From: Candidatus Saganbacteria bacterium | GTDB taxonomy: Bacteria > Margulisbacteria > WOR-1 > XYC2-FULL-46-14 > WPAF01 | DNA length: 64,000 nucleotides | Assembly (NCBI GenBank): GCA_009772965.1 | Contig: WPAF01000001.1 | Coordinates: 78,639 to 142,638, forward strand | Reading direction: 5' to 3' | Shown here: one piece after another, positions 10,837-26,723 of the stretch | Numbering within the stretch: position 1 is the first letter of the stretch | Layout of the letters: each line of letters starts with the position of its first letter | Notes under the pieces: model-generated | Databases searched by the model: none | Seen by the model: only the letters and a program-made list of their open reading frames with translations | What the model was told of the DNA's origin: nothing | Translations under genes and position numbers: made by a program

Positions 10837-10845
10837 TGATAATAT
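10837..10845 (+). promoter_or_regulatory. Candidate extended -10 element (TGaTAATAT) for the plus-strand radical SAM gene
   Basis: tgataatat lies 10 nt upstream of the ATG at 10855. No convincing -35 is present. Another near-leaderless arrangement. Confidence 0.35.
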
Positions 10846-10854
10846 AGATTTTAT

Positions 10855-11851: not shown

Positions 11852-13597
11852 TCAGCCGTTTGAGAGTGCTGCTTCCATTTGTTGCAAGAAATCCTTTTTT
11901 GCTACCGGATAAGCTAATGCTTCTTTGAACCTTTTAATCGGTTCTTTCCTATCCTCAATAAAACCAGGCAAATCATTAACCACCCTATTAAAAGAATTAA
12001 TTCCGGATTTAACGTCATAAAAAACCATTCCGCATTTCACCAACTCCCGATTAATTTTTTTCCCTTCATCTGAAGAAATACAATTAAACTCATATTTCGA
12101 CTGAAACACTAGAGTTGGGACGCCAGTTTGTATTGATTCCGCAAAGCCAGTACTAATCGAATCCCACAAAACAAAATCCACTTTATCATAAAGTGACATT
12201 GGCAAAACATTAATATCGAGCACTTTAATTGAACCATCATTACAACTCTTTACAAGATCATTTTGAATTGGATCATAGCAGGAATCTGTTCCCGGGAACG
12301 GCTTATAAAGAATTTTAAGGTTATGATATAGTGTTTTAATTTCTTTGAGCAAACAAAGCATATTCAACCTGTGCTGATAAAACTTTTCGGGAGATAAAGA
12401 GTCAAGATCGCGCATAAATTCCGTAAGCGGCTGTGCAGGGTATAAAACAACAATATCTTCAGAATTATTATCTCGCCCTCTCCACTTCTTAAGCTTTAGA
12501 GAAGATAAGAGATAATACAAGAAAGGTGTGCCATAATTTATTATTTTTACATTTACGTGCGGCCTTTTGCTTTTAATCCAATCGCTATTGGCTTTGCCCC
12601 ATGTAAAGAAATAATCAATAAAACGCAATTCATTATCGGCATGCGCGAAGAAGGGCTGATAATTTACTACACCATGATCATGGCAAACAAGCAGCGCCCC
12701 TTTACGTTTGGCCAAAAAAGCGAATATCTTAAAGTTTTCATTCAAAGAATACCCCGTAAAGGAATGAACCTGTTTTATGTCCCATTGATTAAGACGGCTT
12801 TTATAATAAGCGTATTTTTCTTCGAACCCCTCAACAATTGATAAGGGCAATGCGCAATCCATAAACTCAGCATAAGCTTTTGAAACTTTCTTCGCCTGAA
12901 TTTCATCCATTGCACCGACAAACTTGTTGGCATATTTAAAAAATATATTTTCGTAACATCCCTTTATTTGGCTTCGAATGTCATAGTTTATTTCACGAGC
13001 ACTTCCCAAGAAATCGAAATGAAATAAATCACGAGAAGAGAGGGTGCTTTTCATCCAACCCGAATATTCCCCAATCACTTTAGGTTTTATCAATTTGACA
13101 TAAAAACTGTTTATGCTCGCCAATATTTTCCTAGCTTGCTTTTTCAAATTAAAACCATCTTCTCTCTTAAGCAATGATTCCTGCGGTTTCGGAAGATTTT
13201 TTATCGTTTGCATATGGAGAAATTCATTATGATTAAAAATGCATTGTATTTTATGTAAAATGGCATGGTTAATTGCATAATCATGGTAATAGCTTAAAAC
13301 AACTTCGCGGGTATTATTAAAATAATGCAGCTCATAATCGATTTTTGGATAAGCAACTCCCGACTTAGTTTCTATTTGGAAGGAAACCCTTAGCAATCTC
13401 TCAATGAACATATATGTAACAGAATTTATCGGGAAACGGAGCAGCAATAAAAGCTCCTTGGAACTAAGAGTTTTATATATTGATAATTTTTTATTATAAA
13501 TTTCAAGAATAACATCATCTGCAAGTTTGTTGGCATATTCGACCATTGTTTTCTGGTCATAAAGATCTGTCCAATCCATTCCGTTTTTTATCTCCAT
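11852..13597 (-). CDS. Large hypothetical protein (581 aa), possible novel transferase of a glycan locus
   Basis: Long uninterrupted ORF translationally coupled to the downstream PIG-L gene (stop at 13597, next start 13599). No motif I can name with confidence. It is soluble-looking (no long hydrophobic stretches). Confidence 0.5.
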   Translation of the reverse strand: MEIKNGMDWTDLYDQKTMVEYANKLADDVILEIYNKKLSIYKTLSSKELLLLLRFPINSVTYMFIERLLRVSFQIETKSGVAYPKIDYELHYFNNTREVVLSYYHDYAINHAILHKIQCIFNHNEFLHMQTIKNLPKPQESLLKREDGFNLKKQARKILASINSFYVKLIKPKVIGEYSGWMKSTLSSRDLFHFDFLGSAREINYDIRSQIKGCYENIFFKYANKFVGAMDEIQAKKVSKAYAEFMDCALPLSIVEGFEEKYAYYKSRLNQWDIKQVHSFTGYSLNENFKIFAFLAKRKGALLVCHDHGVVNYQPFFAHADNELRFIDYFFTWGKANSDWIKSKRPHVNVKIINYGTPFLYYLLSSLKLKKWRGRDNNSEDIVVLYPAQPLTEFMRDLDSLSPEKFYQHRLNMLCLLKEIKTLYHNLKILYKPFPGTDSCYDPIQNDLVKSCNDGSIKVLDINVLPMSLYDKVDFVLWDSISTGFAESIQTGVPTLVFQSKYEFNCISSDEGKKINRELVKCGMVFYDVKSGINSFNRVVNDLPGFIEDRKEPIKRFKEALAYPVAKKDFLQQMEAALSNG

Positions 13598-13598: not shown

Positions 13599-14300
13599 TT
13601 AATTAACCCTTTTTAGACGTTCAAATGCTTCGGCATATTTATATTTCTGTGCCTTTCCCCTCTTTTGTGCCAGTTCTTCTACTGCTTGAGGGGAAAAGGG
13701 ATGTGGATAATCCTGCAATTCACTTTCGTATGCTTTTAAAGCCTTTAATTTAACTTCAATAAAATCTGACACATTCTCCACATATTCAGCTTTAAATGTA
13801 TTTGCTGACTTAGGCGGCAAAATATCCATATTGCCAGGGATCTCAAAACAAAAAATAGTAGCGTTTTTAACAATTTGCCTGCCAGGTCGAAACGCAGTTA
13901 GAGTCGCCTCACAAACCACCCTATGATCTTTGTTTAAATCCCCCCAATGGTGCGTATAAACAATATCGGGAGCATTTTTTTCGGTAAGTTTCTCTACTCT
14001 TTTTACTATGTCCAATAAAGGCAGCGCATCCAAACGTTGATCCGGAAGAACAAAATAGCTGCAATTTTCTTTTTTTACTCCCAACAGATTTATAGCCTTA
14101 AAGAATTCATTTTTGCGCATACCTACGGATTTTTTATCTTGTTTTTTGAGCCTATTCGGAAAATAGTGACGAGAAGTTACTCCATCGCCAAAAACAATAA
14201 TACGTACCTCATCCCCTACCTGGATATGTTTGGCGATGGTTCCACCACAACCCAAGATTTCGTCATCAGGATGAGCTACTACAACCAATACTCTTTTCAT
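13599..14300 (-). CDS. PIG-L / LmbE-family N-acetyl-sugar deacetylase
   Basis: 233 aa; N-terminal VVVAHPDDEILGCGG zinc-binding motif typical of PIG-L deacetylases. Confidence 0.75.
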   Translation of the reverse strand: MKRVLVVVAHPDDEILGCGGTIAKHIQVGDEVRIIVFGDGVTSRHYFPNRLKKQDKKSVGMRKNEFFKAINLLGVKKENCSYFVLPDQRLDALPLLDIVKRVEKLTEKNAPDIVYTHHWGDLNKDHRVVCEATLTAFRPGRQIVKNATIFCFEIPGNMDILPPKSANTFKAEYVENVSDFIEVKLKALKAYESELQDYPHPFSPQAVEELAQKRGKAQKYKYAEAFERLKRVN

Positions 14301-14301
14301 A

Positions 14302-15537
14302 TTATTTTCTCACGCTTTTATTGCCTTTGATATAATTCACTTTTGGCCTCATATTAATTACATCTGCGTCAATTTTCATATCCTTTAACTGATCCACTAT
14401 TTCTTTGTCATACATAGAAGCGACAATTATCAGATCTACAGGATCAGAAATCAATTGCTCGGGAGGATAAACCTTTAAATTATTATTAACAAAACACATA
14501 TCCCATTTTCTTTGATCAATATCTACAATATAGGAAATACGAGTAGCATCCAACCCATAAATCGGGAATAAATACCCGCCGAACCCACCCGCTCCCCAAA
14601 TGGCGATCTTTTTATCCTTTTTTATAAAAGGGTCAGTATGCTTTTTGAATTTTTTATGATTTCTCCCATATTCAAGAACAAAATTCTTTCCCAATCTATT
14701 TCCCGTATCTATTTTCACATCATGCGCTTTGCCCGTTTCAGCCGCAATAATAATCAGATTTTCGGGGGTCTTTTTATATTCAATCAATTTCAAACCGGAT
14801 CTTCTCAAAACCTCACAAACAGAAGAGATCGAAAACCCGTGAATATGTTGAAAATTAAATGATTCAAAAGAACCATTTTCTAAAAAATATTCAATATTCG
14901 GTGTCTCAAAAACGACCAGCCCTTTCTTTGTTAATACTTTTTTGACGTCCTTCAACAATTCAACAGGATATTCAACATGCTCAATAAAATGCCTAAAAAT
15001 TACAACGTCGAAATATGAATTATGGGCAATAAAATCCTGGCTTTTAAAATATCGCTTATACACTTTTATGCCGATTTCTTTTGCGATATCCGCCCCTTTG
15101 CTTGGATCACAGCCGCATACAAGAAAGTCTCTTTTAGATAGTTCCCTTAAAACATATCCGTCATAACAAGCAATTTCCAAAATATTTTTTAATTTGCCCT
15201 CAGCACAGATGGGGCTAACACTTTTATTAAACATGTCCAAGAACATATTTTCCCTTTTTTGGATAAACCCAGAAATAACGGCCGATGGATAATTATAAAA
15301 CTCGCTATAAATTGAATCCATTAACTTATCATTCGGCTTCATTGATTGAAACACATGGCCGCAATTAGTGCATTTTTTTACTTTTAAAGGCGCGTTAAGT
15401 TCCTTGATAGAATACCGTCTTAATATTTCTATTTTTTCTTCTTTTGAAACAGCAAAACCGATATAAGGGAATCGATCGGTTTGAAACAGCAAAGCTGATT
15501 TTTCGTTTTCACACACAGGGCATTTCATAAATTCCAT
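14302..15537 (-). CDS. Sugar C-methyltransferase (TylCIII/NDP-hexose C-methyltransferase architecture)
   Basis: 411 aa with three parts: an N-terminal zinc ribbon (CPVCEN...CTNCGH), a class I SAM-MTase core (ILEIACYDGY), and a C-terminal Rossmann-like domain (IAIWGAGGFGGYL...VDIDQRK) as in C-methyltransferase C-terminal domains. Confidence 0.65.
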   Translation of the reverse strand: MEFMKCPVCENEKSALLFQTDRFPYIGFAVSKEEKIEILRRYSIKELNAPLKVKKCTNCGHVFQSMKPNDKLMDSIYSEFYNYPSAVISGFIQKRENMFLDMFNKSVSPICAEGKLKNILEIACYDGYVLRELSKRDFLVCGCDPSKGADIAKEIGIKVYKRYFKSQDFIAHNSYFDVVIFRHFIEHVEYPVELLKDVKKVLTKKGLVVFETPNIEYFLENGSFESFNFQHIHGFSISSVCEVLRRSGLKLIEYKKTPENLIIIAAETGKAHDVKIDTGNRLGKNFVLEYGRNHKKFKKHTDPFIKKDKKIAIWGAGGFGGYLFPIYGLDATRISYIVDIDQRKWDMCFVNNNLKVYPPEQLISDPVDLIIVASMYDKEIVDQLKDMKIDADVINMRPKVNYIKGNKSVRK

Positions 15538-15548
15538 TTCGACTCTCC

Positions 15549-15776
15549 TTAAATTAATTTTTTCCCCAAAACATGAGCAATATCACCCAAATTATTAATT
15601 TGAAACATTTCATCAATTTCAAATTTAATAGAAAATTCTTTTTCTAAAGCCATAATTAAGCTTAAATGCCCCATTGAATCCCAAGCGGGAATATCAGCTG
15701 ACGTCCATCGCATATCTATTTTTCCATTATCAAATTTAAATGTCTCTCTAATAACTTTTTCTATACGCCTATCCAC
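15549..15776 (-). CDS. Acyl/peptidyl carrier protein
   Basis: 75 aa; WDSMGHLSLIMALEKEF places a Ser in the phosphopantetheine-attachment context (DSx...L..E.EF). Confidence 0.6.
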   Translation of the reverse strand: MDRRIEKVIRETFKFDNGKIDMRWTSADIPAWDSMGHLSLIMALEKEFSIKFEIDEMFQINNLGDIAHVLGKKLI

Positions 15777-15796
15777 ACGCCTTCTCCTTCCTGATA

Positions 15797-17212
15797 TTAA
15801 TCATGGTTATCCGCCCTTTCTTTTAACATGCCTAATTCCTCATAAACTTTTAATCGAAAATCAATAATATCTTGTTTCTCTAATTTATACGGTTTAATGA
15901 AAGGCGTGTCGTTGGCATAATAAAAAGAGCCCGTATTATGCAAATTTGCCTGGTCAATTATCAATAAATTATTGGCGACGCATTCATCGTAAAGCTTTGT
16001 CCCTGGGAAAGGGGTGGCAAAACTAATAACCGCACGTTTCAGCTCTAATTGTTTTATCAATTCATAGGTTTCCTGCAATGTTTCGTGTGTTTCATTGGGA
16101 AATCCAACTATAAAAAATACGTTATAAGCCAATTTCGGATATTTTTTTATATTATTAAAGGCAGCAATTATATTCTCCTGCGTTAACCTTTTATTTATTG
16201 ACATCCTAATTTCCGGCGAACCGCTTTCAACCGCCAAACACGTCCTAACAAGCCCGGCATTTATAAGCGCTTCAATTACTTCTTCATCAATAGTATTAAG
16301 ATCAAGCCCATTTGGAGTGTCAAATTGAATATTTAGACCTTTACTAATAATTAAATTACACATTTCAATGGTTCGATTTTTATTTAATGTTAGATTGTCA
16401 TCCATAAAAGAAAAATAATGATGGTTTAGATGAAAATACAAATATTCCAACTCGTCAACCACATTAGAAGCTGAACGCATCCGATGCTTTCGTCCGTGTG
16501 CCAGGAACATGCTACAATAAGTACATTGTCGAGGACAACTTCGGCTGGAAAGGACGTAAAGGCTAAGATTGATCGGCAGCTTTCTAGGGTTGATCCATTT
16601 TGAAGTATTAAAATAATAATCTTTAATATTAACCAAGCTATAATCAGGGAAAGGGATGCCATCTATATCTTCAATGTATTTTTCTTTCTTATTTACCGAT
16701 ACCTCCCCATTGATCCGATAGGCCAGCCCATCTATACGGTTAAAACCGTTTATCTTATTTTCGATTGCATTGACCAATTCGATCAGGCTTGATTCGCTTT
16801 CCCCCTGCAAGATAAAATCGACACAGTCATATTCAGCAAGGATTTGCCGCGAAAATATAGTGGGATGAATCCCCCCAAAAACTATCGGAATAAGCGGATA
16901 GTCCACTTTTATTGATTTACCAATTGCGATCGCCGGGGAAAAACGGACAGAACAATGGATCGAGATACCGATTAAATCCGGCTTAAAATCCGAAATAATT
17001 TTTTGCATCTTTGATTTATAGTATTCCTCAAAATTAAATTTCGTTTTTTCAGATACAGCCGTGATTTGATCATTGCTGACATCAATAAATAAGACCTCAT
17101 GGCCATTTTTTTTCAAAGAAGATGAAAGATATAATATTCCCAAGGGAATATGCCTTTCTTCTGAGAAGATAAAATCGGGATTGTGAGGATTTATTAAAAG
17201 GATCTTAGCCAA
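15797..17212 (-). CDS. B12-binding domain radical SAM enzyme
   Basis: 471 aa; CPRQCTYC motif after an N-terminal B12-binding-like domain. Confidence 0.75.
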   Translation of the reverse strand: MAKILLINPHNPDFIFSEERHIPLGILYLSSSLKKNGHEVLFIDVSNDQITAVSEKTKFNFEEYYKSKMQKIISDFKPDLIGISIHCSVRFSPAIAIGKSIKVDYPLIPIVFGGIHPTIFSRQILAEYDCVDFILQGESESSLIELVNAIENKINGFNRIDGLAYRINGEVSVNKKEKYIEDIDGIPFPDYSLVNIKDYYFNTSKWINPRKLPINLSLYVLSSRSCPRQCTYCSMFLAHGRKHRMRSASNVVDELEYLYFHLNHHYFSFMDDNLTLNKNRTIEMCNLIISKGLNIQFDTPNGLDLNTIDEEVIEALINAGLVRTCLAVESGSPEIRMSINKRLTQENIIAAFNNIKKYPKLAYNVFFIVGFPNETHETLQETYELIKQLELKRAVISFATPFPGTKLYDECVANNLLIIDQANLHNTGSFYYANDTPFIKPYKLEKQDIIDFRLKVYEELGMLKERADNHD

Positions 17213-18464
17213 CTTTTTTCTCCATTCTACCCTCCAATTTTGCTCTCATTTTGGGCAATACTGTGCCATATATCATAAGGGTTTCTTCGATAACTCTATC
17301 TGTATGCGCATAAGAAATCATATGCCATCCCGCGCTTAATATGCCATGTGCAGCAACTAGCTCAATCCAATACAAAAGGTCATCAGTGGGATCATAATTC
17401 AAATTATTTTTGTCAATAAAATTAATACCGAACCTGCAATCAAATCCTAATATTTCCATTCTGTCAGACAGATTGTATTTAACAATTAAACTTTTGATCC
17501 CTTCTCTAAGTTTCGCTCCTGATCTGGCTAACTGAGCAGGAACATCTGCTTGATCATAAAATGCAAGCACTGCTTTGGCGGCTGCCAGAGACAAAGTCTC
17601 TCCAGCATTAGTTAACGAAAAATAAACATCATTAAATTTAGACATAATTCCAGCCTTTCCTACTATAGCTGACAAAGGCATGCCATTGGCGATTGCCTTA
17701 CTAAAACACGATAAATCCGGGACAATATTAAACAATGCTTGCGCTCCACCCTTATGGAAGCGGAATCCTGTTACTACTTCATCAAAAATTAATACAACAT
17801 TATTATTTGTGGCTATTTCCCTTACTTTTTCAAGAAAATTATCCCTGGGCCATTCTTTAGCAGGAATTGGCTCCAAGATAATACAAGCAATATTATCTTT
17901 ATAATCTTTCAATAATTTCATCAGAAAATTAATATCATTAAAAACAAAACGATGCGATAATTCTCCTATGCATTTCGGTATGCCTCCATTTTTTGAAGTT
18001 TGACAAACATACCAATCCTGCCAGCCATGATAGCCGCAAAACAATATATGGTCTCTCCCAGTATAATAACGGGCCAGCCTCACCGCAGCAGAGGTAGCAT
18101 CATTGCCATTTTTACCAAATTTCACTTTTTCCGCGCTGGGAATTCTTTCAATTAACATCTCGGCAACCTGAATTTCTAATGGTGTTGGCAGAGAAAAAGA
18201 GATGCCTTTTTTTAATTGCTCGCTAATTGCCTTATTAACCACAGGATGATTATGCCCGAGAGTCATAGTCCCCAATCCAATAATATAATCAATATACTTA
18301 TTACCATCTACGTCCCAAGTATAGGCGCCATCACCTCTTACCAAACAAAAAGGCGTTCTGCCATTCCCAAACAATTGAACCTTGTTAAATGTTGAAGCGC
18401 TGGCTAAGGATTCCTGACTTCTTGCTAAATATTCATTACTGCTGGCCAAATTAGTATTCCCCAT
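17205..18464 (-). CDS. Class III PLP aminotransferase (glutamate-1-semialdehyde aminomutase-like)
   Basis: 419 aa; FDEVVTGFRF, an SKAIANG PLP-lysine region and N-terminal GxxxxD..G..YIDY, as in HemL-family enzymes. Confidence 0.8.
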   Translation of the reverse strand: MGNTNLASSNEYLARSQESLASASTFNKVQLFGNGRTPFCLVRGDGAYTWDVDGNKYIDYIIGLGTMTLGHNHPVVNKAISEQLKKGISFSLPTPLEIQVAEMLIERIPSAEKVKFGKNGNDATSAAVRLARYYTGRDHILFCGYHGWQDWYVCQTSKNGGIPKCIGELSHRFVFNDINFLMKLLKDYKDNIACIILEPIPAKEWPRDNFLEKVREIATNNNVVLIFDEVVTGFRFHKGGAQALFNIVPDLSCFSKAIANGMPLSAIVGKAGIMSKFNDVYFSLTNAGETLSLAAAKAVLAFYDQADVPAQLARSGAKLREGIKSLIVKYNLSDRMEILGFDCRFGINFIDKNNLNYDPTDDLLYWIELVAAHGILSAGWHMISYAHTDRVIEETLMIYGTVLPKMRAKLEGRMEKKVG

Positions 18465-18489
18465 TTATTATCATACCCCTTGATTTATC

Positions 18490-19317
18490 TCATAATAAGT
18501 CTTGTCGGTTATCTTTTCTAATAAAAATATATCCTTTGGTGAAATTATCTCCGTTAGAATCCAATTGATAATCAAGGCTTTTAAAATTGGATAAATCAAT
18601 TCTGGCATTCTCATTAAATTTTTCCAGCATAATAAAACCTATGCTTTTCACAAATTCGATCAATTCCTCTTCATTAAAAATAATAACGGGCAACCCTTTA
18701 TTGCCCTCCATGCAAAGAAGTGTTTTATATTCTTTATTCTGACCGGCAGTGACCCCGCAAAAATAAAGAACTTTGGGCTGAAAGGAATTGATTGTTTCTT
18801 TTAATGCCTCTTGATAATTTTCGAAAAATTGGAGAGCTTGACGAAAAAATAGAATATCTATTTTATTAATTTTTTTAACATCAGTATAAAAAGACAGGGT
18901 TGAATTGCTTTTATATTTTTCCTTTGCAATACTAACGAGTTCTGCAACATCCAAAACGTTCCATTTTACATTGTTGGGCGAGGATAAATATTTTTCAACC
19001 CCCCAAAAAACCTGGCCAACAGAACCGCCATAATCTAACACTTCAATTTTGCTCATGGATGAGAGCAAATTTATCAAAACAATCAATTTTGCAATGCTTA
19101 TATCTTGGAAAGTTTCTTTGGAATATAATTCGGCCCTTCTGAAAAAATATTCCGCATATTTATCAGATGCATAACCATTTATAATTAATTCACTGGGAAC
19201 ATCAGAAAATTCCGCATATACCATGCCGTTAAATTGATTATGACGCTTCAGTCCTTTTTTATTCAGCTTTTTGTACACTATTTTAACTTTTTCTCTTAAT
19301 CTATCAAAAATTGGCAT
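18490..19317 (-). CDS. Hypothetical protein, possibly a SAM-dependent methyltransferase fold
   Basis: 275 aa; only a weak glycine-rich LDYGGSVG motif. The call is uncertain. Confidence 0.35.
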   Translation of the reverse strand: MPIFDRLREKVKIVYKKLNKKGLKRHNQFNGMVYAEFSDVPSELIINGYASDKYAEYFFRRAELYSKETFQDISIAKLIVLINLLSSMSKIEVLDYGGSVGQVFWGVEKYLSSPNNVKWNVLDVAELVSIAKEKYKSNSTLSFYTDVKKINKIDILFFRQALQFFENYQEALKETINSFQPKVLYFCGVTAGQNKEYKTLLCMEGNKGLPVIIFNEEELIEFVKSIGFIMLEKFNENARIDLSNFKSLDYQLDSNGDNFTKGYIFIRKDNRQDLL

Positions 19318-20347
19318 TTTTCAACTTCCTATTTTTAGCAATTAAAATCGCATAGTCTATCGCATCCAACAAGCTTTTCTCGTCGGCAAGACCTTTCCCC
19401 GCTTTTCCAAAGGCAGTTCCGTGATCCACAGATGTTCTTATGATAGGCAATCCCATCGTAATGTTTACCCCCCCCACCGATTTCCACTTTTCCCCATCCC
19501 AGTCAAACCCATAAAACTTCAACGGGATATGCCCCTGATCATGATACATTGCAACGATAATATCGTATGTGCCGCTTTTACCTTTAGGGAAAATAGTATC
19601 CGGCGGTATTGGTCCCTCAACTAACAAACCTTCAGATTTTGCCCTTTGGATAGCGGGAATAATTTCTTTGATTTCCTCATCCCCCATAATACCTCCATCC
19701 CCCGAATGCGGATTCAAACCGGCAACTGCTATTTTAGGCGAAGAGATCCCCAATTGTTGGCAAGCATCAAAAGCTATTTTTATGGTTTCATAGACTCTAT
19801 CCGCTTTAATAAGATATACCGCTTTTCTAAGAGGAACATGAGTAGTAACATGTATCACTCGAAGATTATCATGTGCTAGAAGCATGGCATAATGTTTGGT
19901 TCCGGTTAATGCGGCCAGCATTTCGGTATGGCCTCGATATTTTTTTCCGTATCCAGCAAGATCAAATGATTCTTTATGGATCGGAGCAGTAACAATTGCA
20001 TCCACTTCTTTCTTTAAAGCTAATTCAATGGCCTTTTCTATATATTGACCAGCAGCTCTGCCGCACGCCTCGTTCACTTTCCCATATTTAAGGCTACTGA
20101 CATCAACATTATTTAGGTCACAAACATCAATGACCCCGGGTTTAAATCCGGCATCCGCAACAGCTTCAACACTATTTACTTTCAGGTCAAGATTGCTAAA
20201 TTTTATAGCCTCAAGCATAGCACTTCTATCTCCTATCACCAGAGGACTGCATTTTGAATATGTCTCCCTATTATGCAAAGCCTTAGAAATAATTTCAGAA
20301 CCGATCCCCGCCGGATCCCCCATAGTTATACAAATAATTGGTTTCAT
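19304..20347 (-). CDS. PdxA-family NAD-dependent 4-hydroxythreonine-4-phosphate/4-phospho-hydroxyacid dehydrogenase
   Basis: 347 aa; ICITMGDPAGIGSEI N-terminus and HDQGHIPLKF metal-site region typical of PdxA/PdxA2. Confidence 0.8.
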   Translation of the reverse strand: MKPIICITMGDPAGIGSEIISKALHNRETYSKCSPLVIGDRSAMLEAIKFSNLDLKVNSVEAVADAGFKPGVIDVCDLNNVDVSSLKYGKVNEACGRAAGQYIEKAIELALKKEVDAIVTAPIHKESFDLAGYGKKYRGHTEMLAALTGTKHYAMLLAHDNLRVIHVTTHVPLRKAVYLIKADRVYETIKIAFDACQQLGISSPKIAVAGLNPHSGDGGIMGDEEIKEIIPAIQRAKSEGLLVEGPIPPDTIFPKGKSGTYDIIVAMYHDQGHIPLKFYGFDWDGEKWKSVGGVNITMGLPIIRTSVDHGTAFGKAGKGLADEKSLLDAIDYAILIAKNRKLKNANF

Positions 20348-21123
20348 AGTTTTTCTCCTTTAAAAATTGCCAATAATTCGCCATGTATTTTACTGTTTGA
20401 TGCAACAACCTGTTTGGAATTCATACCACAGGGATGTCCGGAGAAGTCAGTTAATTCGCCGCCTGCCTCTGTTAAAATTACTATACCGGCTGCTATATCG
20501 CAAATCTTGGTTGCATTCCATACTCTTCCATCAATTTTGCCTGAAGCAATAAAGCATAGATCTCTGGTAGCTACCCCAAGGATCCTAGTGGTAAAAGCTC
20601 TCTCCGTCAATGTTTTATAATACTTAAAGGAATTTTCAGATAAATGAAACTGGTTATCATAGTTGACGATAGCCTTGGAAAGAACTCCATTGTCTGATAC
20701 GGAAATCGGTTCTCCATTACAAAAAGCTCCTTGCCCCCGCACTGCATAATATAATTCATTCTCCATAGGGAAATAGATAACTCCTAAATCAAATCTATCC
20801 CCTTCCATTAGAGCTATAGAGATGCCACTAAAAGGAAGACCTGCAATATAATTATGTGTGCCATCAATAGGATCGATGATCCAATTTTTGTCTCCCTTTA
20901 CATTCGAAAATCTTTTTTCTTCTGTAATAATTCCGCAAGAGGGGAAACCCCTACCCAATATTGCACATATCACTTCTTGAGATTTCATATCTACTTCTGA
21001 AACCATTTCCTTTGGAGATTTACGAATAATCCGATAATCTTTTTTAAAATTTGCTTTTAATATCTCACCCGCTGTCTTGGCCGCGTTAATAGCAATATCT
21101 AGGGCTTGATTGTCATCTTTCAT
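20344..21123 (-). CDS. Inositol-monophosphatase-family phosphatase
   Basis: 259 aa; EEKR, WIIDPIDGTHNY and CDIAAG motifs. Confidence 0.8.
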   Translation of the reverse strand: MKDDNQALDIAINAAKTAGEILKANFKKDYRIIRKSPKEMVSEVDMKSQEVICAILGRGFPSCGIITEEKRFSNVKGDKNWIIDPIDGTHNYIAGLPFSGISIALMEGDRFDLGVIYFPMENELYYAVRGQGAFCNGEPISVSDNGVLSKAIVNYDNQFHLSENSFKYYKTLTERAFTTRILGVATRDLCFIASGKIDGRVWNATKICDIAAGIVILTEAGGELTDFSGHPCGMNSKQVVASNSKIHGELLAIFKGEKL

Positions 21124-22654
21124 TTATTATCACCTTGGACTTTTCTCTTAGATCTTTTTTCAGCAGCTTTCCCGAATGGGTTTGAGGAATGCTTGCAACT
21201 ATTTCAATCACTTTGGGGAGTTTAAGCGCGGATAAATACTTTTTGCAGTGTTCCAATATTTCTTCCGATTCTATTAAACAATTATCTCTTAAGACAATAA
21301 AGCTCTTTATTTCCTCGCCAAAGAGGTCGTCGGGCATTCCTATTGTGGCCGCTTCTTTCACAGCTGGATTCAACAATAAAACCTCATCAATTTCGCCTGG
21401 CATTACATTGGATCCGCCTTTGATTATTAAATCTTTTTTCCTGTCAACAAAATAGTAAATCCCCTGCTCGTTTTTATAGCCCAAGTCGCCCGTATGGAAA
21501 AAGCCGTTCCTCATAACTTCTTTATATAATTTTTCATTCTTGTAATATCCCACAAAGACATTTGCTCCCTTAACTACAATTTCCCCAATTTCATTTGGAG
21601 ACAACTCCCGATCATTCTCATCAACAATTTTTACTTCGTTCACATCCAATGGGACGCCAATTCTGCCAGGCTCCCAATCGGGTTTTCGTGGATCATCGAT
21701 ATGAGTGGGCCCTGTTTCAGATAAACCATAAAGGTTTGCCGTTTTTAACCCGAATTTCTTCTCAAATTCAATTTGGATGCTTTTCTGTAGAGGTGCTGAC
21801 CCGCAGCCAACAAACTTCATAGAGGAGACATCACAACCTTTTGTATCTTGGTAGATATTCAAAATTGAATATAAAACCGTGGGTACCACCTCCATATAGT
21901 TAACGCGTTCTTTTTGAATCAGCTCCCAGATCCTGTTCCTTATCTGCCAAAATGATTCTGCTAAAATCATTTTTCCGCCAGCATACATGCAGGGTAAAAA
22001 AGAGTAGTTTGTGGAAGCGGTATGTCCTAAAGGAAGAAATACAAGATGTACTTCATTATCATTCATAAAATCAAAGCCGCGGCAAACGGAACTAATATCA
22101 GCGATCATATTCTTATGAGAGAACAATACCCCTTTAGGGTCGCCGGTGGTCCCGGAAGAATAATACAAACATGCGGGACAATTTTCGTCGATTTCCACCC
22201 TTGCCCGCAAACTATCCGCATGGACTTCTAAACTTTTTTCAAACAACCTTTCTTCCCCAACCGGGACTTCCACAAAACTCGCCCGTTCCCCCGCAAACTC
22301 ATTAAATCTTCTAGCATCCACCAACACAATGCTTGGGCCAACATAGCTGATATTTTTTTTCACTTCTTCCTTATGAGAAGTAAACGGCATAGGATTAAAT
22401 ATCGCGCCAATTCTTAGCGCGGCAAAATATAAAAAACAATACTCGGGCGAGTTTTCAATGAGCGCGGTAATTCTATCCCCTCTTTCTATCCCTTTTGAAA
22501 GCAAATAATTCGAGGCTTTTTCAACAATTAGATTGAATTCTTTAAAGTAGTAACATCTTCCAGAACGCACATCAGATATAAAAACCTTATCAGGATTTAT
22601 TCTACTTTGATAATAAAGAACTTCGGAAAAATTCTTACAATCTTTAAGTTCCAT
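21113..22654 (-). CDS. AMP-binding (adenylate-forming) acyl-CoA/ACP ligase
   Basis: 513 aa; LYYSSGTTGDPKGV AMP-binding motif, YGLSETG, C-terminal GK. Confidence 0.85.
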   Translation of the reverse strand: MELKDCKNFSEVLYYQSRINPDKVFISDVRSGRCYYFKEFNLIVEKASNYLLSKGIERGDRITALIENSPEYCFLYFAALRIGAIFNPMPFTSHKEEVKKNISYVGPSIVLVDARRFNEFAGERASFVEVPVGEERLFEKSLEVHADSLRARVEIDENCPACLYYSSGTTGDPKGVLFSHKNMIADISSVCRGFDFMNDNEVHLVFLPLGHTASTNYSFLPCMYAGGKMILAESFWQIRNRIWELIQKERVNYMEVVPTVLYSILNIYQDTKGCDVSSMKFVGCGSAPLQKSIQIEFEKKFGLKTANLYGLSETGPTHIDDPRKPDWEPGRIGVPLDVNEVKIVDENDRELSPNEIGEIVVKGANVFVGYYKNEKLYKEVMRNGFFHTGDLGYKNEQGIYYFVDRKKDLIIKGGSNVMPGEIDEVLLLNPAVKEAATIGMPDDLFGEEIKSFIVLRDNCLIESEEILEHCKKYLSALKLPKVIEIVASIPQTHSGKLLKKDLREKSKVIINER

Positions 22655-22659
22655 TATTT

Positions 22660-23067
22660 TTATTTCTTCTCCTTTTCAACAAGTTCAACTAGTTCTTTTT
22701 CAGATGTATAAAGCCAAACTGTTAATTGATCCTTGTGTCCTTTACCAGGAACAGGCTCCCCAAATATAAGAGAGCCCTTTGCCCTTAAGGTTTTAATTGC
22801 TTCATGTATATCATCAACCTCAAAACAAAGATGATGCAACCCTCCACCCTGTGACAGAAACTTACTCACAGGAGAATCTTCACTAACCGGTTTTATTAGC
22901 TCTATGGTTAAATCCCGCCCAAGGCCCATTTCCACAAAACAAACCTCCACCTTTTGGATTGGATCTATGACCGGCTCATCCAATTTTGAAAAGCCAAAAG
23001 TGCTTTTGTAGTATTCAACCGCTTCTTCTAAATTACTTACGACCTTACCAATATGATGCAATCTCAT
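22660..23067 (-). CDS. VOC-family protein (glyoxalase / methylmalonyl-CoA-epimerase-like)
   Basis: 135 aa; MRLHHIGKVVSNLEEAVEYY start typical of VOC/MCE fold proteins. Confidence 0.65.
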   Translation of the reverse strand: MRLHHIGKVVSNLEEAVEYYKSTFGFSKLDEPVIDPIQKVEVCFVEMGLGRDLTIELIKPVSEDSPVSKFLSQGGGLHHLCFEVDDIHEAIKTLRAKGSLIFGEPVPGKGHKDQLTVWLYTSEKELVELVEKEKK

Positions 23068-24054
23068 TTAAAATATCTCCGTCGAATCACCCATGGTAAA
23101 ATACCAACTTTTTTTATCTTTAACTTCACCCGCATATTTAAATTCTTTGTTTAAACGAATAACAAGAGGAATTCTCGTAGCTTCCTTAATAAATCCTTTG
23201 CCTTCTAAGACCTGCTCGATGAGCCGACTGCCCCATAGCCAACAGGTAACCTCATCAACCTTTTGTTCGCTAAAAAAGCTTAAAGAACCATTAATAATCT
23301 TGGTTATGGTATCTTCATCATGAAGATCAGCAAAAATATCTATTATATGTCCCCTTAAAAGCTTATCCTCTCTATACAGCTTCAAAACCGAATAACCCTT
23401 AAGCTCACCATTAGCATAAACTCCAAATGGATAATACTTCCAATCTGGCCTTTCCAAATATCGCCAATTTAAATAAGCTTTATTTCTAACAACTACAATC
23501 TTATACTTTTCGGAACATAAATCCCAAAGCCGATCAAAATCATCATCAAATTCCTTGACCGGACGGAAAGAAGCTGAATCAGTAATATTTAACGTGCTTT
23601 TATCTATGGCCGGTCTTGTTATTTTCCAGGTATCAAACTCAATCAGATCCTCATATCCCATATGAGTTCTATGCACACGATAAGCTTTTTCATTTGGGAA
23701 ACCATATGTAAAAGGAATATTATTTTGTGCTGCCTCTTCGAATAATTTATCACCAACAAATTTCAACAGTCCCCTATTCTGATATTTTGGTTCGACCATA
23801 GCACCTATTGAATGTGAAGCGACCAATTCCTCATCAAAAACTTGCAGTCGATAAGGAACAACAGCAAAATGGGCAACAATATTATTTCCTTCTTCCATAA
23901 CCCAAATAAATGATTTTCCTGCCGGATTCTGATCGGAATACTTCCAGTACCAATTACTTAATTCCCTTCTATTCCAGGGATGTACTTCTAATCTTCGATC
24001 TAATTCCCAAAGTTTTATTTCGTCGCCTTCTTTATAGAGCCGTATTTTCATCAT
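23068..24054 (-). CDS. Hypothetical protein, possible FemAB/CelD-like GNAT-fold acyltransferase
   Basis: 328 aa; region ...AMVEPKYQNRGLLKFV weakly resembles the GNAT motif A. Weak call. Confidence 0.35.
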   Translation of the reverse strand: MMKIRLYKEGDEIKLWELDRRLEVHPWNRRELSNWYWKYSDQNPAGKSFIWVMEEGNNIVAHFAVVPYRLQVFDEELVASHSIGAMVEPKYQNRGLLKFVGDKLFEEAAQNNIPFTYGFPNEKAYRVHRTHMGYEDLIEFDTWKITRPAIDKSTLNITDSASFRPVKEFDDDFDRLWDLCSEKYKIVVVRNKAYLNWRYLERPDWKYYPFGVYANGELKGYSVLKLYREDKLLRGHIIDIFADLHDEDTITKIINGSLSFFSEQKVDEVTCWLWGSRLIEQVLEGKGFIKEATRIPLVIRLNKEFKYAGEVKDKKSWYFTMGDSTEIF

Positions 24055-25107
24055 TTATTCCAACATGCCTTCTTGAATTACATCTTCTTTATCAATATCT
24101 ACTTTTACTTTTCTGCCAACAATCAAGCCCAGATTCTTTGGTTCAATTCCGGTTCCAGGCCTGGTCATTTTTAGTTTCTCCCGACTCAACTGCTCACCTT
24201 TATTGATCCTGCATCTGGCTACAATACTTCTTCTTATTATCTTTCTGGCATCCAATTCCGCTTGAGACAAATTTCTTTGATAAGAGCCTAACGATTTTTC
24301 AACTTCTCTCACTGCTCTCACAAGTTCCTGCATGCCACTTGGTTCAAGTGCAAAAGGATGATCTGGACCTTCCATCTTTCGATCAAGAGTTATATGTTTT
24401 TCAATAATGCAGGCTCCCAAAGCTATGGAAGCCATTGCCATATAGTTATCAGGGCTGTGGTCAGAAAACCCTACCGGTAATCCAAAAGTCTTAATCAAGG
24501 TTACGATGTTCTTAAGATTTACCACTTCGGGATTGGGAGGATAACAAGATACGCAATGAAGCAGAGCAATTTGATCGTTTCCGTTCCTTAATATGGTTTC
24601 TACCGCTTCTTCTATTTCCCGTAAATAAGACATGCCGGTAGACAAAATAATAGGCTTTTTAAATTTAGCCAGCTCGCCTAAAAAATCCAAATAAGCAACA
24701 TCTATAGAAGCAATCTTAAAAACCGGAGGATCGAACTGCATGATAAACTCAGCATCCTTAATTGAGTGGACAGTAGAGAAAACATCCAATTCTTTATCCC
24801 TTGCATATTCAAACATTTCCTTAAACCATTCCCGCGGCATCAAAATCCGGTCTCTGGCAACCTCCCACCATGGCTGGTAGCCATAGTCCTTTTCATAGGC
24901 AACGTCACGGGTTGTAATTTTGCCGCTGAATACTTCTAATGGTTCATAAGTTTGGAACTTTATAGCATCAAAACCTGCATCCGATGCAGTATCAATCATC
25001 TTTCTGACAATTGTCTTGTCTAAATTATGATTAGAGCCTATCTCTGCAATAATATAGGTTGGATATTCTGGCTCGATTATTTTTTTATTGATCATTATTT
25101 TTTTCAT
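24055..25107 (-). CDS. Nonulosonic acid synthase (NeuB/PseI/LegI family; PEP condensing enzyme with SAF domain)
   Basis: 350 aa; YIIAEIGSNHN...AIKFQTY NeuB signature and C-terminal SAF-like region. Confidence 0.85.
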   Translation of the reverse strand: MKKIMINKKIIEPEYPTYIIAEIGSNHNLDKTIVRKMIDTASDAGFDAIKFQTYEPLEVFSGKITTRDVAYEKDYGYQPWWEVARDRILMPREWFKEMFEYARDKELDVFSTVHSIKDAEFIMQFDPPVFKIASIDVAYLDFLGELAKFKKPIILSTGMSYLREIEEAVETILRNGNDQIALLHCVSCYPPNPEVVNLKNIVTLIKTFGLPVGFSDHSPDNYMAMASIALGACIIEKHITLDRKMEGPDHPFALEPSGMQELVRAVREVEKSLGSYQRNLSQAELDARKIIRRSIVARCRINKGEQLSREKLKMTRPGTGIEPKNLGLIVGRKVKVDIDKEDVIQEGMLE

Positions 25108-25120: not shown

Positions 25121-26128
25121 TCATTTCAATACTTCTTCTACTGCTTTTTTAATGTCTACGACTTGCGGCAAAACTGCATCTTCTAAAATTTTAGTATTTG
25201 CTATCGGCACATTTTTGGCGGCTACTCTTTTAACTGGTGATTCCAATAATTCAAAACCATCATTTATTACTTGGGCTGCCATCTCAGCGCCCCATCCATT
25301 AAACAATGTCCCTTCTTCAACAATAACAAGTCTTCCTGTCTTTTCGACTGATTCCAATATTTCTGGCATAGATGCTTTATTAATATAACTGGGAACAATT
25401 ATTTCCGAAGTGACCTCATCTTCCAATAGCAATTCATTCAACGCAACCGTCACCCAAGGTAACATACCACCATAGGTCAAAACTGTCACTTGATGTTCTT
25501 TAAAATCATTATTCGACAAAATAATGGTCTCATATTCATCTTTACTTTTTCTGGCAGAATAATCAAAAATATGTCCGTTCTCTAATTCATCAATTTCCCG
25601 GGTGTACAAAACCTTGTTTTCAATAAAAAGAACCGGATCATTATCTTCAATCGCCTTGATTAGCTGCTCACCAGGATCATGAAAGTGACTGGGCGCAATA
25701 ATCTTTAATCCTGGAATGCCTAAAAACAACTTTTCCAGAGTTTGACTGTGGGTGGGGCCATAGCCTCTACGCCCCCCCATGGGAGTCCTGATAACCATGG
25801 GAACTGTTACTTTCCCTTTATACATCCAACCAAATTTTGTTGCATGATTAATAAGTTGATCGGCACATAATGTCAAAAAATCCCCAAACATTATCTCAAG
25901 TATCGGTCTTATTCCCCTCATTGCTAAGCCAGCAGCTAAGCCAGTCAATGCCCATTCGCTCATGGGAGTATTTATAACTTGATCGGGATATTTCGTTGAC
26001 AAACCTTTTGTTATTTTAAAAGCTCCTCCATAAGGGTCACAGACATCTTCCCCAAGGAGGATAACATTCTTGTCTTTCTTTAATTTATAATCTAATGCCT
26101 GACTAATTGATTGTGCATAGGTAATCAT
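25121..26128 (-). CDS. ThDP-dependent 2-oxoacid dehydrogenase E1 beta-like subunit, pair 3
   Basis: 335 aa; ..NTPMSEWALTGLAAGLA.. transketolase-like pyrimidine-binding domain. Confidence 0.8.
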   Translation of the reverse strand: MITYAQSISQALDYKLKKDKNVILLGEDVCDPYGGAFKITKGLSTKYPDQVINTPMSEWALTGLAAGLAMRGIRPILEIMFGDFLTLCADQLINHATKFGWMYKGKVTVPMVIRTPMGGRRGYGPTHSQTLEKLFLGIPGLKIIAPSHFHDPGEQLIKAIEDNDPVLFIENKVLYTREIDELENGHIFDYSARKSKDEYETIILSNNDFKEHQVTVLTYGGMLPWVTVALNELLLEDEVTSEIIVPSYINKASMPEILESVEKTGRLVIVEEGTLFNGWGAEMAAQVINDGFELLESPVKRVAAKNVPIANTKILEDAVLPQVVDIKKAVEEVLK

Positions 26129-26723
26129 TTAATTTCCTCTCCAGACAAATCTCAACTTCATTCGCTGAGTATTTATATCCCTCTTTCCCCAACGAAGTTA
26201 AAAAATCCTCGTGTTTTCTTTTAAGACGATAAGCAGGTTCCTTTGAGGGATGTTTCAAATATTTATTAATAATTTCCATTCTCGGGTTAATAAGCAAGGA
26301 GCCCTGATAAAAAAGAAGTTTTTGTTCTCTATACATCGAAGAACCTAAAATTTTATTTTCATTTATGCAGATATCTGATATACCCTTTTTACTCAAACCA
26401 TCAATATTTAAATCCCTAAGCCCTTGAACTATTAATTCATTTATCTGATTGAAATATAATTGATTGCCAAAATCACTCTCTACGAATTTAGCAATAGAAA
26501 TTATCAATACCCCTTCAGTTAGAACCACCGCACCACCACCACCCAACCTCCTTAATATCTTAATGTTGTCTTTTTTGGCTCTGCTAACAAAAACCTCAAT
26601 TTCCGGTTTGTTTGCCCTACCTAGAACGATAACAGTATCGAGTGCTGCCCAAATCCTAATCCTGTATTTCCCATCTTTCTTAACCAGTCCTATCATATCT
26701 TTCATATCTTTGTTAAAATTCAT
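26103..26723 (-). CDS. Short lipoate-protein ligase / octanoyltransferase family protein (BPL_LplA_LipB catalytic domain)
   Basis: 206 aa; RRLGGGGAVVLTEG resembles the LplA/LipB RRxxGGGAV motif. It sits between the E1alpha and E1beta genes. Confidence 0.6.
   Translation of the reverse strand: MNFNKDMKDMIGLVKKDGKYRIRIWAALDTVIVLGRANKPEIEVFVSRAKKDNIKILRRLGGGGAVVLTEGVLIISIAKFVESDFGNQLYFNQINELIVQGLRDLNIDGLSKKGISDICINENKILGSSMYREQKLLFYQGSLLINPRMEIINKYLKHPSKEPAYRLKRKHEDFLTSLGKEGYKYSANEVEICLERKLNDYLCTIN

Follow-up and report, generated by a model that had tools for sequence, protein, structure and literature searches.

Introduction

In this article, I discuss a set of genes that lies within a 64,000-nucleotide stretch of DNA from a Candidatus Saganbacteria bacterium (contig WPAF01000001.1; hereafter the window, with positions counted from its first letter), in what its gene content identifies as a chromosomal surface-polysaccharide locus for a pseudaminic acid (Pse)-type nonulosonic acid. 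Flagella, S-layers, capsules and O-antigens bear nonulosonic acids such as Pse, on whose N-acyl groups antigenicity, phage recognition and filament assembly depend, and the enzymes that install glyceroyl, hydroxybutyryl or the methoxy-trihydroxy-hexanoyl group of Treponema denticola are largely unknown. An earlier note had proposed that carrier-protein genes at 15549-24054 build an aminated and methylated acyl group that is then transferred to a sugar amine. Judged by the sequence comparisons described below, the functional unit is larger and reaches past 15549 to a de-N-acetylase gene at 13599, and 13599-24054 as a whole is rather likely to be an acyl carrier protein (ACP)-dependent N-acyl remodeling module of the Pse-type pathway. 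The cassette would then be a widespread candidate route to such acyl groups, carried by many uncultivated phyla and by SAR11-type marine bacteria.

Several described systems come close to this module, each in one part of its logic. The tetronate set of Vibrio cholerae O1 includes an ACP and the ATP-dependent ligase-like WbeL, together with an iron alcohol dehydrogenase and LuxC/E-like proteins. In that organism the perosamine of the O-antigen carries an N-linked tetronate, and a small group of O-antigen genes makes this short polyhydroxy C4 acid and links it to the sugar amine (PMC3441752). The Saganbacteria module shares with this set the succession of carrier, ligase, tailoring and then N-acyl transfer to a sugar amine, but the acceptor in V. 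cholerae is perosamine and not a nonulosonic acid, and the V. cholerae set (VC0248-VC0252, WbeK-O) is not described with PdxA-like, IMPase-like, VOC, PIG-L or tandem GNAT proteins. The butirosin pathway for the 4-amino-2-hydroxybutyrate (AHBA) side chain (with BtrI as ACP, and BtrJ, BtrK, BtrO/V, BtrH and BtrG) builds a hydroxylated amino-acyl chain on its carrier and delivers it to an amino-sugar amine. The same pathway contains BtrD, a deacetylase of the PIG-L/LmbE family (PMC4101496). An acyl chain made on an ACP for an amino-sugar amine and an LmbE-like deacetylase in the pathway are thus features in common, whereas butirosin loads its ACP with an ATP-grasp enzyme and not with an ANL ligase, the transferase BtrH lies outside the GNATs, the chain starts from glutamate and not from a phosphorylated hydroxy acid, and the acceptor is an aminoglycoside.

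The exposure of an amine and its re-acylation also have precedents in teicoplanin and A40926 (Orf2*/Dbv21 with an acyltransferase), mycothiol (MshB with MshD) and lipid A (LpxC with LpxD), where a metal-dependent de-N-acetylase uncovers a GlcNAc-derived amine that is then acylated again, as proposed here; of the acylating partners, MshD has a tandem-GNAT architecture and LpxD takes its acyl group from acyl-ACP. The teicoplanin deacetylase and MshB are both members of the PIG-L family (PMC4101496). These pairs differ from the present module in that they act on a glycopeptide, an inositol glycoside and a lipid A precursor, and in that their donors are acyl-CoA, cysteine or fatty acyl-ACP from primary metabolism, with no dedicated set of ACP, ligase, dehydrogenase and phosphatase.

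Closest in genomic setting are the flagellin glycosylation islands of Aeromonas, Enterobacteriaceae and Campylobacter, in which an ACP and an AMP-dependent synthetase stand between pse genes, and which also hold deacetylases, class III aminotransferases, methyltransferases and phosphatases, all in sets that are uncharacterized (PMC7874193, PMC4875605). Compared by description only, those sets differ in going with FabG, LuxC and LuxE, that is, with fatty-acid-like chemistry, and with a HAD phosphatase, and they are not described with PdxA, IMPase and VOC proteins or with a tandem GNAT. On the side of the product, the Pse-type sugar of T. denticola carries a 2-methoxy-4,5,6-trihydroxy-hexanoyl group, an O-methylated acyl group resembling a deoxy-aldonic acid (PMC13439194). 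By analogy, the cassette, and especially a variant of it with a mannitol-1-phosphate-dehydrogenase-like enzyme, an IMPase and a methyltransferase, could make an acyl group of the T. denticola type, and the known sugar-acid N-acyl groups of V. cholerae and T. denticola render such a product credible; no Treponema protein occurs among the named homologues of the acyltransferase or the ligase. The literature on PdxA, ACP or deacetylase genes in Pse pathways gave no published description of the cassette, only descriptive genomics of flagellin glycosylation islands. The set is conserved and uncharacterized, and it departs from the known systems in its combination of a PdxA2-like or mannitol-1-phosphate-dehydrogenase-like enzyme, an IMPase-like phosphatase, a methylmalonyl-CoA-epimerase-like VOC protein and a dedicated tandem-GNAT family, in its tight embedding between pseG and pseI and in its spread across many uncultivated phyla.

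A conserved cassette embedded among Pse genes

Families were assigned by Pfam gathering thresholds, NCBIfam equivalog cut-offs, sequence search of the PDB and inspection of motifs, and the comparison drew on 25 loci found in reference genomes with a profile of the GNAT family, plus further loci from metagenomes, which were searched with all window proteins by tblastn and examined over 10 kb flanks. All six gene types that the earlier note had named (an ACP, an AMP-ligase, an aminotransferase, a VOC protein, a B12 radical SAM enzyme and a GNAT) are present with significant matches, and its list grows by three that it had missed, namely a PdxA-like dehydrogenase (19304-20347), an IMPase-like phosphatase (20344-21123) and a PIG-L de-N-acetylase (13599-14300). 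The arrangement needs two corrections: the neighbor of the ACP is the radical SAM gene at 15797-17212, with the ligase (21113-22654) 5 kb off, and the sub-cluster, which had been placed upstream of the nonulosonic acid synthase, lies directly downstream of it in transcription because the genes are on the minus strand. Positions 15549-24054 are fully occupied by ten overlapping or closely packed minus-strand open reading frames (ORFs), part of an array that runs unbroken, with tiny gaps or overlaps, from 11852 to 41588.

These genes keep their order across phyla. A single-amplified genome of Fibrobacterota (locus L004) and metagenome-assembled genomes (MAGs) of Aminicenantes (L007), Clostridia (L009) and Omnitrophota (L011) share the succession PseG-NeuB-GNAT-VOC-ligase-IMPase-PdxA-ACP-PIG-L, at 53-72% identity, while an Altiarchaeota MAG (L003) has the core genes in rearranged form; with corresponding genes in one and the same order across such distant phyla, the clustering is not due to chance. 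Wherever a homologue of the GNAT at 23068-24054 (328 amino acids (aa), hereafter GNAT328) occurs at 35% identity or more and with enough flank, the ligase and the ACP are found in every locus and VOC, IMPase and PIG-L in nearly all, with GNAT328, VOC and ligase contiguous in almost every one. A NeuB-family synthase flanks the cassette in all related loci, and GNAT328 always adjoins pseG or pseI in the loci compared; homologues of PseB and PseC accompany the cassette in L009, L011, L015, L030 and L031. This strict synteny with pseG/pseI and with PIG-L supports the transfer of the acyl group to a sugar amine, as the earlier note had predicted. Three of the core-order loci (L007, L009 and L011) also share a 144-147-aa FdtA/WxcM-like cupin between the cytidylyltransferase and pseG, and likewise a 640-690-aa DUF6044 membrane protein with weak similarity to Wzy_C.

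A variant of the cassette, inserted between pseG and pseI, is found in Pelagibacteraceae, Humidesulfovibrio and several metagenome contigs, with the order GNAT-VOC-ligase-(mannitol-1-phosphate-dehydrogenase-like)-IMPase-[zinc alcohol dehydrogenase-class III aminotransferase]-C-methyltransferase-ACP. Here an enzyme whose best NCBIfam match is mannitol-1-phosphate 5-dehydrogenase (168 bits) takes the place of PdxA, the zinc alcohol dehydrogenase and the class III aminotransferase frequently join the set, and a TcaB9-like methyltransferase stands beside the ACP. A further arrangement comes from an archaeon MAG (GCA_043810755.1; L033, 9001-15277), where an 849-aa fusion of ACP, ligase and IMPase (P0364) is followed by PdxA and VOC and then by a NeuD/PglD-type hexapeptide sugar N-acyltransferase, an APH-like kinase, an epimerase-DegT fusion and a GT9 gene; this locus contains no GNAT328 and no Pse genes. 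As it uses a PglD-type transferase without GNAT328, the N-acyltransferase is an exchangeable output step, and ACP, ligase, IMPase, PdxA and VOC make up a portable five-gene factory for an acyl donor. Both points argue strongly, if indirectly, that the ligase loads the ACP and that its product reaches an amino-sugar amine.

Carrier protein, ligase and their natural fusions

The free-standing ACP (15549-15776, minus strand) has 75 aa and matches PF00550 with 25.4 bits against a cut-off of 20.8. Its motif WDSMGHLSL holds the serine at the start of helix II (D-S-x), and the serine of the WDS(M/L/V)xH motif, on which the earlier note had made its idea depend, is invariant in 14 of 14 cassette ACPs as well as in five ACP-ligase fusions. 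Against the AcpP equivalogs (TIGR00517 and related models) the protein scores 21.7-30.6 bits, far under their cut-offs of 66-106. In locus L034 (7560-10812), a gene for a holo-ACP synthase (ACPS) adjoins an ACP-ligase fusion, and the same locus carries NeuB, a cytidylyltransferase, an aldo-keto reductase (AKR), a class III aminotransferase and a KpsC/S-like Capsule_synth gene.

The ligase (21113-22654, minus strand) is an ANL adenylate-forming enzyme (PF00501, E 3e-75, 254 bits, plus PF13193, 56 bits) in which the core motifs A3, A5, A7, A8 and the A10 lysine are all present (SSGTTGDPK at 166, YGLSE at 309, HTGDLG at 387, DRKKDLIIKGG and SGK496). Its best NCBIfam model is PRK06187, a long-chain-fatty-acid-CoA ligase subfamily, at 380.7 bits against a cut-off of 476, and it stays under the cut-off of every FadD/FACS model in NCBIfam. 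Among solved structures the ligase comes nearest to feruloyl/fatty-acyl-CoA synthetases (212 bits), oxalyl-CoA synthetase (205) and malonyl-CoA synthetase (196), the best PDB matches spanning 195-212 bits at about 30% identity, and the oxalyl- and malonyl-CoA synthetases among them act on small anionic acids. Its homologues form a clade specific to the cassette, with 56-70% identity across phyla and generic names only. An identity as a housekeeping FadD was accordingly rejected, and the earlier note's claim of a dedicated carrier-protein module, set apart from housekeeping lipid metabolism and with a ligase that does not group with housekeeping fatty-acyl-CoA synthetases, has held up.

Nature has also joined these proteins directly. 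The ligase and IMPase ORFs of the window overlap by 11 nucleotides; P0299 and P0370 are fusions of ligase and IMPase; P0362, P0376, P0379 and P0384 carry an N-terminal ACP (with a WDSFAH motif) fused to the ligase; and P0364 holds ACP (residues 9-80), ligase (93-581) and IMPase (592-848) in one polypeptide. The natural ACP-ligase fusions point to this ACP as the one that the ligase loads, a carrier that is found in every cassette with enough flank, and the fusions taken together place carrier, ligase and phosphatase in a single pathway.

Dehydrogenase, phosphatase, VOC protein and deacetylase

The three genes that had escaped the earlier note are the most telling about the chemistry, pointing as they do to a phosphorylated hydroxy-acid precursor and to deacetylation followed by re-acylation. 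The first of them (19304-20347, minus strand; PF04166, 356 bits) encodes a PdxA-family NAD-dependent dehydrogenase that passes the PdxA equivalog TIGR00557 (355 bits, cut-off 290) and scores in the PDB 283 against 4jqp, 280 against PdxA2 (2hi1), 265 against D-threonate-4-phosphate dehydrogenase (6e85) and 178 against E. coli PdxA. It thus appears closest to the PdxA2 branch, which acts on 4-phospho-D-threonate/erythronate, with a score of 322 bits against the PdxA2 equivalog NF002891 that falls short of the cut-off of 583; the annotated window genes include no DUF1537 kinase. Homologues with 57-72% identity are found in L003, L004, L007, L009 and L011 and one with 56% in L033; the gene travels with the glycan cassette and not with pdx genes, a genomic context that speaks against a role in the pyridoxal phosphate (PLP) pathway in spite of the score.

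The IMPase/HisN-family phosphomonoesterase (20344-21123, minus strand; PF00459, 192 bits) has the IMPase/FBPase 2p3n as its best PDB match (150 bits) and histidinol-phosphate phosphatase among its relatives. The protein of VOC/glyoxalase fold (22660-23067, minus strand; Glyoxalase_4, 78.6 bits), whose gene stands directly after that of GNAT328 in nearly all loci, is of the methylmalonyl-CoA-epimerase type: it scores 83.8 bits against TIGR03081, under the cut-off of 114.95, and its nearest solved relatives include human MCEE (3rmu, 60 bits), and from this kinship it may work like methylmalonyl-CoA epimerase.

The PIG-L/LmbE-family de-N-acetylase (13599-14300, minus strand) matches PF02585 with 93.4 bits against a cut-off of 28.2 and bears AHPDDE at residues 9-14, the His-x-Asp-Asp metal/base motif of LmbE-like enzymes (PMC4101496, Table 1). 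It is linked to GNAT328, PseG or the ACP in L003, L004, L007, L009, L011, L013, L014, L017 and L028-L032, and in L003, L013, L014, L017 and L032 it adjoins GNAT328 or PseG outright.

A tandem GNAT as candidate acyltransferase

GNAT328 (23068-24054, minus strand) matches only Acetyltransf_9 (42 bits, N-terminal half only) and Acetyltransf_1 in Pfam, no NCBIfam model at E <= 1e-3 and nothing in a PDB sequence search. The AlphaFold2 (AF2) model is nonetheless of high quality (pLDDT 93.4, pTM 0.90) and consists of two GNAT-like halves, and Foldseek places it with Eis-like acetyltransferases and N-myristoyltransferases (NMTs) at E 1e-15 to 1e-13. The confident model and these tandem-GNAT neighbors, which work with acyl-CoA donors, both favor the proposed role in acyl transfer. 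The earlier note had supposed an acyltransferase of the FemAB/CelD kind; the acyltransferase fold is borne out by the model and its Foldseek neighbors, whereas the FemAB/CelD identity (PF02388, PF13480) had to be given up, there being no such Pfam match and no Fem protein among the top 50 structural neighbors.

Residues 91-97 (YQNRGLL) form the donor-binding beta4-alpha3 segment (Q/R-x-x-G-x-G/A), with an invariant G95 and with leucine in the final position, as in Eis. The family is strongly conserved, and its C-terminal end, FTMGDxxEI[FY], is invariant; in Eis and NMT the C-terminal carboxylate serves as the catalytic base, which is a lead only. The wider superfamily comprises 983 representative clusters at E <= 1e-30, and the relatives are named only 'GNAT family N-acetyltransferase' or 'hypothetical'.

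The PseH step of the Pse pathway was considered as the function of GNAT328 and rejected. Proteins resembling PseH, or PseG-GNAT fusions, co-occur with it in L004 and L028-L032 (the small GNATs of L004, L028 and L031 have PseH as their best match, at 38-46 bits, below the cut-off of 93.1), and GNAT328 itself has no match to the PseH model TIGR03585; since PseH-like GNATs coexist with it, GNAT328 is not the PseH step.

Candidate enzymes for tailoring the acyl group

Four further enzymes of the window, the aminotransferase, the radical SAM enzyme, the TIGR04325 enzyme and, in part, the C-methyltransferase, lie outside the conserved core, and because of this the amination and methylation of the acyl group rest on inference; an aminated and methylated acyl group, as the earlier note had it, is plausible for this window. 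The class III aminotransferase (17205-18464, minus strand; PF00202 Aminotran_3, E 7e-50) is a PLP enzyme resembling glutamate-1-semialdehyde aminomutase (GSAM). An assignment as HemL was rejected on score (262 bits against 527 for TIGR00713, and 334 against 486 for NF004856), and its PDB relatives are GSAM, GenB C-6' aminotransferases and the AMT domain of mycosubtilin synthesis, the last of which aminates a beta-ketoacyl carrier-protein thioester. Homologues with 41-51% identity occur in the variant cassettes of L013, L015, L016, L018, L031 and L032. I propose that the enzyme acts on the acyl chain and aminates a keto group there; action on the sugar is less likely.

The B12-binding (class B) radical SAM enzyme (15797-17212, minus strand; PF02310 60.8 and PF04055 78.1 bits) has CPRQCTYC (CxxxCxxC) at residue 226, reaches no NCBIfam equivalog cut-off and is a probable C-methyltransferase; a 46% homologue stands beside the aminotransferase homologue in L016 (Humidesulfovibrio), so that the pair recurs together. 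The HMM annotation of 18490-19317 (minus strand), which the earlier note had called for, gave a TIGR04325 (LIC12133-type) methyltransferase (105.2 bits, cut-off 80) with no Pfam match, seen only in this window and absent from L003-L032. Next to the ACP, at 14302-15537 (minus strand), lies a TcaB9/TylC3-like C-methyltransferase (Methyltransf_23 plus Methyltransf_14, the latter 29.2 bits against a cut-off of 23.5) with an N-terminal Cys4 zinc ribbon (CxxC...CxxC), whose best PDB matches, at only about 50 bits, are the sugar 3-C-methyltransferase TcaB9 and the mycarose 3-C-methyltransferase TylC3. It is a frequent accessory gene and adjoins the ACP in L013, L015, L028-L030 and L032.

The window as a whole is rich in radical SAM genes: four of the B12-binding kind lie on the minus strand (3573-5579, 15797-17212, 30479-31852 and 34148-35725), and a SPASM radical SAM gene (10855-11820) is on the plus strand. 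None of the five proteins attains any NCBIfam equivalog cut-off, and their number suggests unusually heavy C-methylation of the glycan, or other radical chemistry on it.

A proposed route and its rivals

From the gene identities, synteny, fusions and GNAT fold set out above, I infer an acid, an order of steps, either on the ACP or ahead of loading, an acceptor nitrogen and a stage of the sugar as follows. The precursor would be a small polar hydroxy acid taken from a phosphorylated sugar-acid-like metabolite, the best guess being C4 phospho-tetronate for cassettes of the PdxA type, because their dehydrogenase is PdxA2-like, and a longer phospho-aldonic acid for those with the mannitol-1-phosphate-dehydrogenase type. 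The ligase would activate the acid and thioesterify it onto the free-standing ACP, where the PdxA2-like dehydrogenase would oxidize the hydroxyl adjoining the CH2-O-phosphate, the thioester form shielding the beta-keto intermediate from decarboxylation, the usual outcome with PdxA and PdxA2; the VOC protein would epimerize or isomerize the acidic, activated alpha-carbon of the acyl thioester, and the IMPase-like enzyme would take off the phosphate, the ACP-ligase-IMPase fusion being compatible with action in cis. On the side of the sugar, PIG-L would strip an N-acetyl group from a Pse precursor and so free an amine, most likely, by analogy with PIG-L substrates, the 2-acetamido group inherited from UDP-GlcNAc beside the anomeric carbon, which would become N5 of Pse, and GNAT328 would attach the ACP-bound acyl group to this amine. 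Among the additions, the class III aminotransferase would exchange a keto group for an amine. The C-methyltransferase would place a methyl group on the carbon alpha to the ketone, in the manner of TcaB9 with its 4-keto sugars, and the B12 radical SAM and TIGR04325 enzymes would supply further methyl groups.

The most specific version of this scheme is a sugar-acid assembly line, in which the ACP thioester lets a PdxA2-type enzyme oxidize the beta-hydroxyl without decarboxylation, followed by VOC epimerization, C-methylation, transamination, dephosphorylation by the IMPase and transfer by an acyl-ACP-using GNAT family to N5 of a de-N-acetylated Pse precursor. In all these particulars at once I regard it as speculative and on balance unlikely; if true, it would amount to deoxysugar-style tailoring moved onto an ACP-bound acid and would explain the origin of exotic polyhydroxy N-acyl groups on nonulosonic acids. 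Confirmation of the cassette would give functions to the PdxA2-like, IMPase-like and methylmalonyl-CoA-epimerase-like VOC clades and to a GNAT family of about 1,000 representative clusters (E <= 1e-30), and would provide parts for the glyco-engineering of Pse derivatives.

Several points weigh against reading 13599-24054 as an N-acyl remodeling module for Pse. GNATs ordinarily take CoA thioesters, and the use of acyl-ACP by GNAT328 is an extrapolation; the annotated window genes include no phosphopantetheinyl transferase, and all homologues of cassette proteins carry generic names only. Action of a PdxA2-type enzyme on free 4-phospho-tetronate would yield dihydroxyacetone phosphate and lose the carboxylate that the ligase needs, so the scheme calls for oxidation on the ACP, a longer substrate or a reductive use of the enzyme, and the fusion of ligase and IMPase agrees equally well with removal of the phosphate before and after loading. 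A class III aminotransferase is also found in an ACP-less Pse island, that of Aeromonas group I (PMC7874193), and AKR-aminotransferase pairs occur in L028 and L034; given its presence in ACP-less Pse islands, the aminotransferase may act on the sugar and not on the acyl chain. Finally, L033 carries the module with a DegT_380-like enzyme (see below) and no Pse genes, and the acceptor in the window might therefore not be Pse.

This last point leads to the rival that deserves the most attention, namely that the ACP module is real while its acyl group goes to another amino sugar, for instance the product of the DegT aminotransferase at 36401-37543 (DegT_380), or is attached as an O-ester. The window does contain this second amino-sugar pathway and several further NDP-sugar enzymes, and the epimerase-DegT fusion of L033, 45% identical to DegT_380, keeps company with the same fused ACP-ligase-IMPase, PdxA, VOC and a PglD-type transferase in the absence of Pse genes. 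I nevertheless think another acceptor improbable: GNAT328 is always beside pseG or pseI, a DegT_380-like gene is missing from most GNAT328 loci over the 10 kb covered, PIG-L enzymes have N-acetyl sugars as their substrates, GNAT328 and PseG are accompanied by such an enzyme, and GNATs are for the most part N-acyltransferases. Somewhat less credible again is that GNAT328 is an acetyl-CoA-dependent N-acetyltransferase, an isozyme of PseH, with the product of ACP, ligase, PdxA and IMPase passed to some other transferase. Its family matches are generic (Acetyltransf_9 and Acetyltransf_1), and L007, L009 and L011 show no separate small PseH-like GNAT in the stretch from pseC to pseG, but elsewhere PseH-like proteins exist alongside it (L004, L028-L032), the PseH model does not recognize it, no other acyltransferase is conserved in a cassette where GNAT328, VOC and ligase are contiguous almost everywhere, and its tandem architecture is that of enzymes with bulky donors or acceptors (Eis, NMT).

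The remaining two rivals concern what the ligase activates. N-aminoacyl nonulosonic acids are known, and the substrate might be an amino acid (4-hydroxythreonine from 4-phospho-hydroxythreonine, or alanine) handled by a DltA/DltC-like N-aminoacyl module in which the VOC protein would be an aminoacyl-thioester epimerase, in keeping with a dehydrogenase that passes the PdxA equivalog cut-off, PdxA having an amino acid phosphate as its canonical substrate, and with a phosphatase related to that for histidinol phosphate. The relatives of the ligase are, however, acyl- and aryl-CoA ligases, with no DltA or A-domain among the best 60 PDB matches, the dehydrogenase is nearer to PdxA2 with its hydroxy-acid substrates than to true PdxA, and the variant cassette exchanges PdxA for the mannitol-1-phosphate-dehydrogenase-like enzyme, all of which leaves this option a slender one, a shade behind the PseH isozyme. 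I find it hardly credible that the ligase and ACP serve ordinary fatty-acid activation, as a FadD/AasS-like pair for a lipid substituent or for housekeeping whose position in a glycan locus is a coincidence. Public annotations do name the ligase 'long-chain acyl-CoA synthetase', and its best NCBIfam match is a long-chain-fatty-acid-CoA ligase subfamily, but that match (380 against 476) and those to all other models stay below the cut-off, the ACP is well under the AcpP cut-offs, the locus is without genes for ketosynthase, ketoreductase, dehydratase and enoyl reductase, and across phyla the ligase keeps company with PdxA, VOC, PIG-L and Pse genes and is found joined to a phosphatase of the IMPase type.

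The wider locus

The Pse pathway around the module is spread over the minus strand. Directly beside GNAT328 lies the NeuB/PseI-family nonulosonic acid synthase (24055-25107; PF03102, 262 bits), whose scores reach neither the NeuB (316 against 400) nor the PseI (296 against 340) cut-off; at higher coordinates come PseG, the UDP-sugar hydrolase (28747-29757; TIGR03590, 167 bits, cut-off 153.6), a PseF-like cytidylyltransferase (29754-30482; CTP_transf_3, with 94 bits against 205.7 for the PseF model), a PseC-like DegT aminotransferase (39449-40609; PF01041, 414 bits) and a PseB-like dehydratase (40614-41588; Polysacc_synt_2, PF02719, 362 bits). PseG reaches its equivalog cut-off, and with the synthase and the cytidylyltransferase below theirs, the nonulosonic acid made here may differ from canonical Pse5Ac7Ac. 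Wza- and Wzz-like export genes lie beyond, at 41949-44822 on the minus strand, and the high-coordinate end of the window consists of housekeeping genes (PheST, DnaB, AlaRS, RecG and others). A 760-aa ORF at 31849-34131 (minus strand), which has no Pfam match, and a 581-aa protein at 11852-13597 (minus strand), with a weak match to the LIC12162 family of transferases (46.9 bits, cut-off 225), are candidate nonulosonic-acid transferases or polymerases.

On the low-coordinate side, the minus-strand array is broken at 10474-11820 by a 77-aa HTH_17 (excisionase-like) ORF and the SPASM radical SAM gene, the sole plus-strand gene of the region, and the GC content, about 0.36 in the cassette, reaches 0.44-0.46 at 6-10 kb. 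Separately acquired blocks may meet here.

Between the synthase and PseG, at 25121-28725 on the minus strand, stand genes for an E1-beta, an LplA-like lipoate ligase, an E1-alpha and a 365-aa protein that unites a lipoyl domain (IETTKVATEL), a segment like the peripheral-subunit-binding part of an E2 (ARALADSLGINISSVEKIGIIREKDIKAFIE) and a PglD/NeuD hexapeptide N-acyltransferase (TIGR03570, 169 bits, cut-off 160.8). The last of these resembles an 'E2' with a sugar N-acyltransferase in place of the catalytic core, and suggests CoA-independent N-acylation of an amino sugar from a 2-oxo acid by way of acyl-lipoamide. The architecture PF00364+PF00132 is found in most of the 120 matches listed (of 449 homologues in total), under generic names only, and a literature search on a lipoyl-PglD enzyme found nothing. 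A link between these genes and the cassette was considered and rejected, as they are absent from all GNAT328 loci and are therefore a separate acyl-donor system. Two more E1-alpha/E1-beta pairs without an E2 partner lie at 1544-3552 and 6573-8551 (minus strand), adjoining NDP-sugar epimerase/dehydratase genes, a 668-aa B12 radical SAM enzyme and a short-chain dehydrogenase/reductase (SDR); the pairs are reminiscent of the AviB1/AviB2-type enzymes, which add two-carbon branches to keto sugars.

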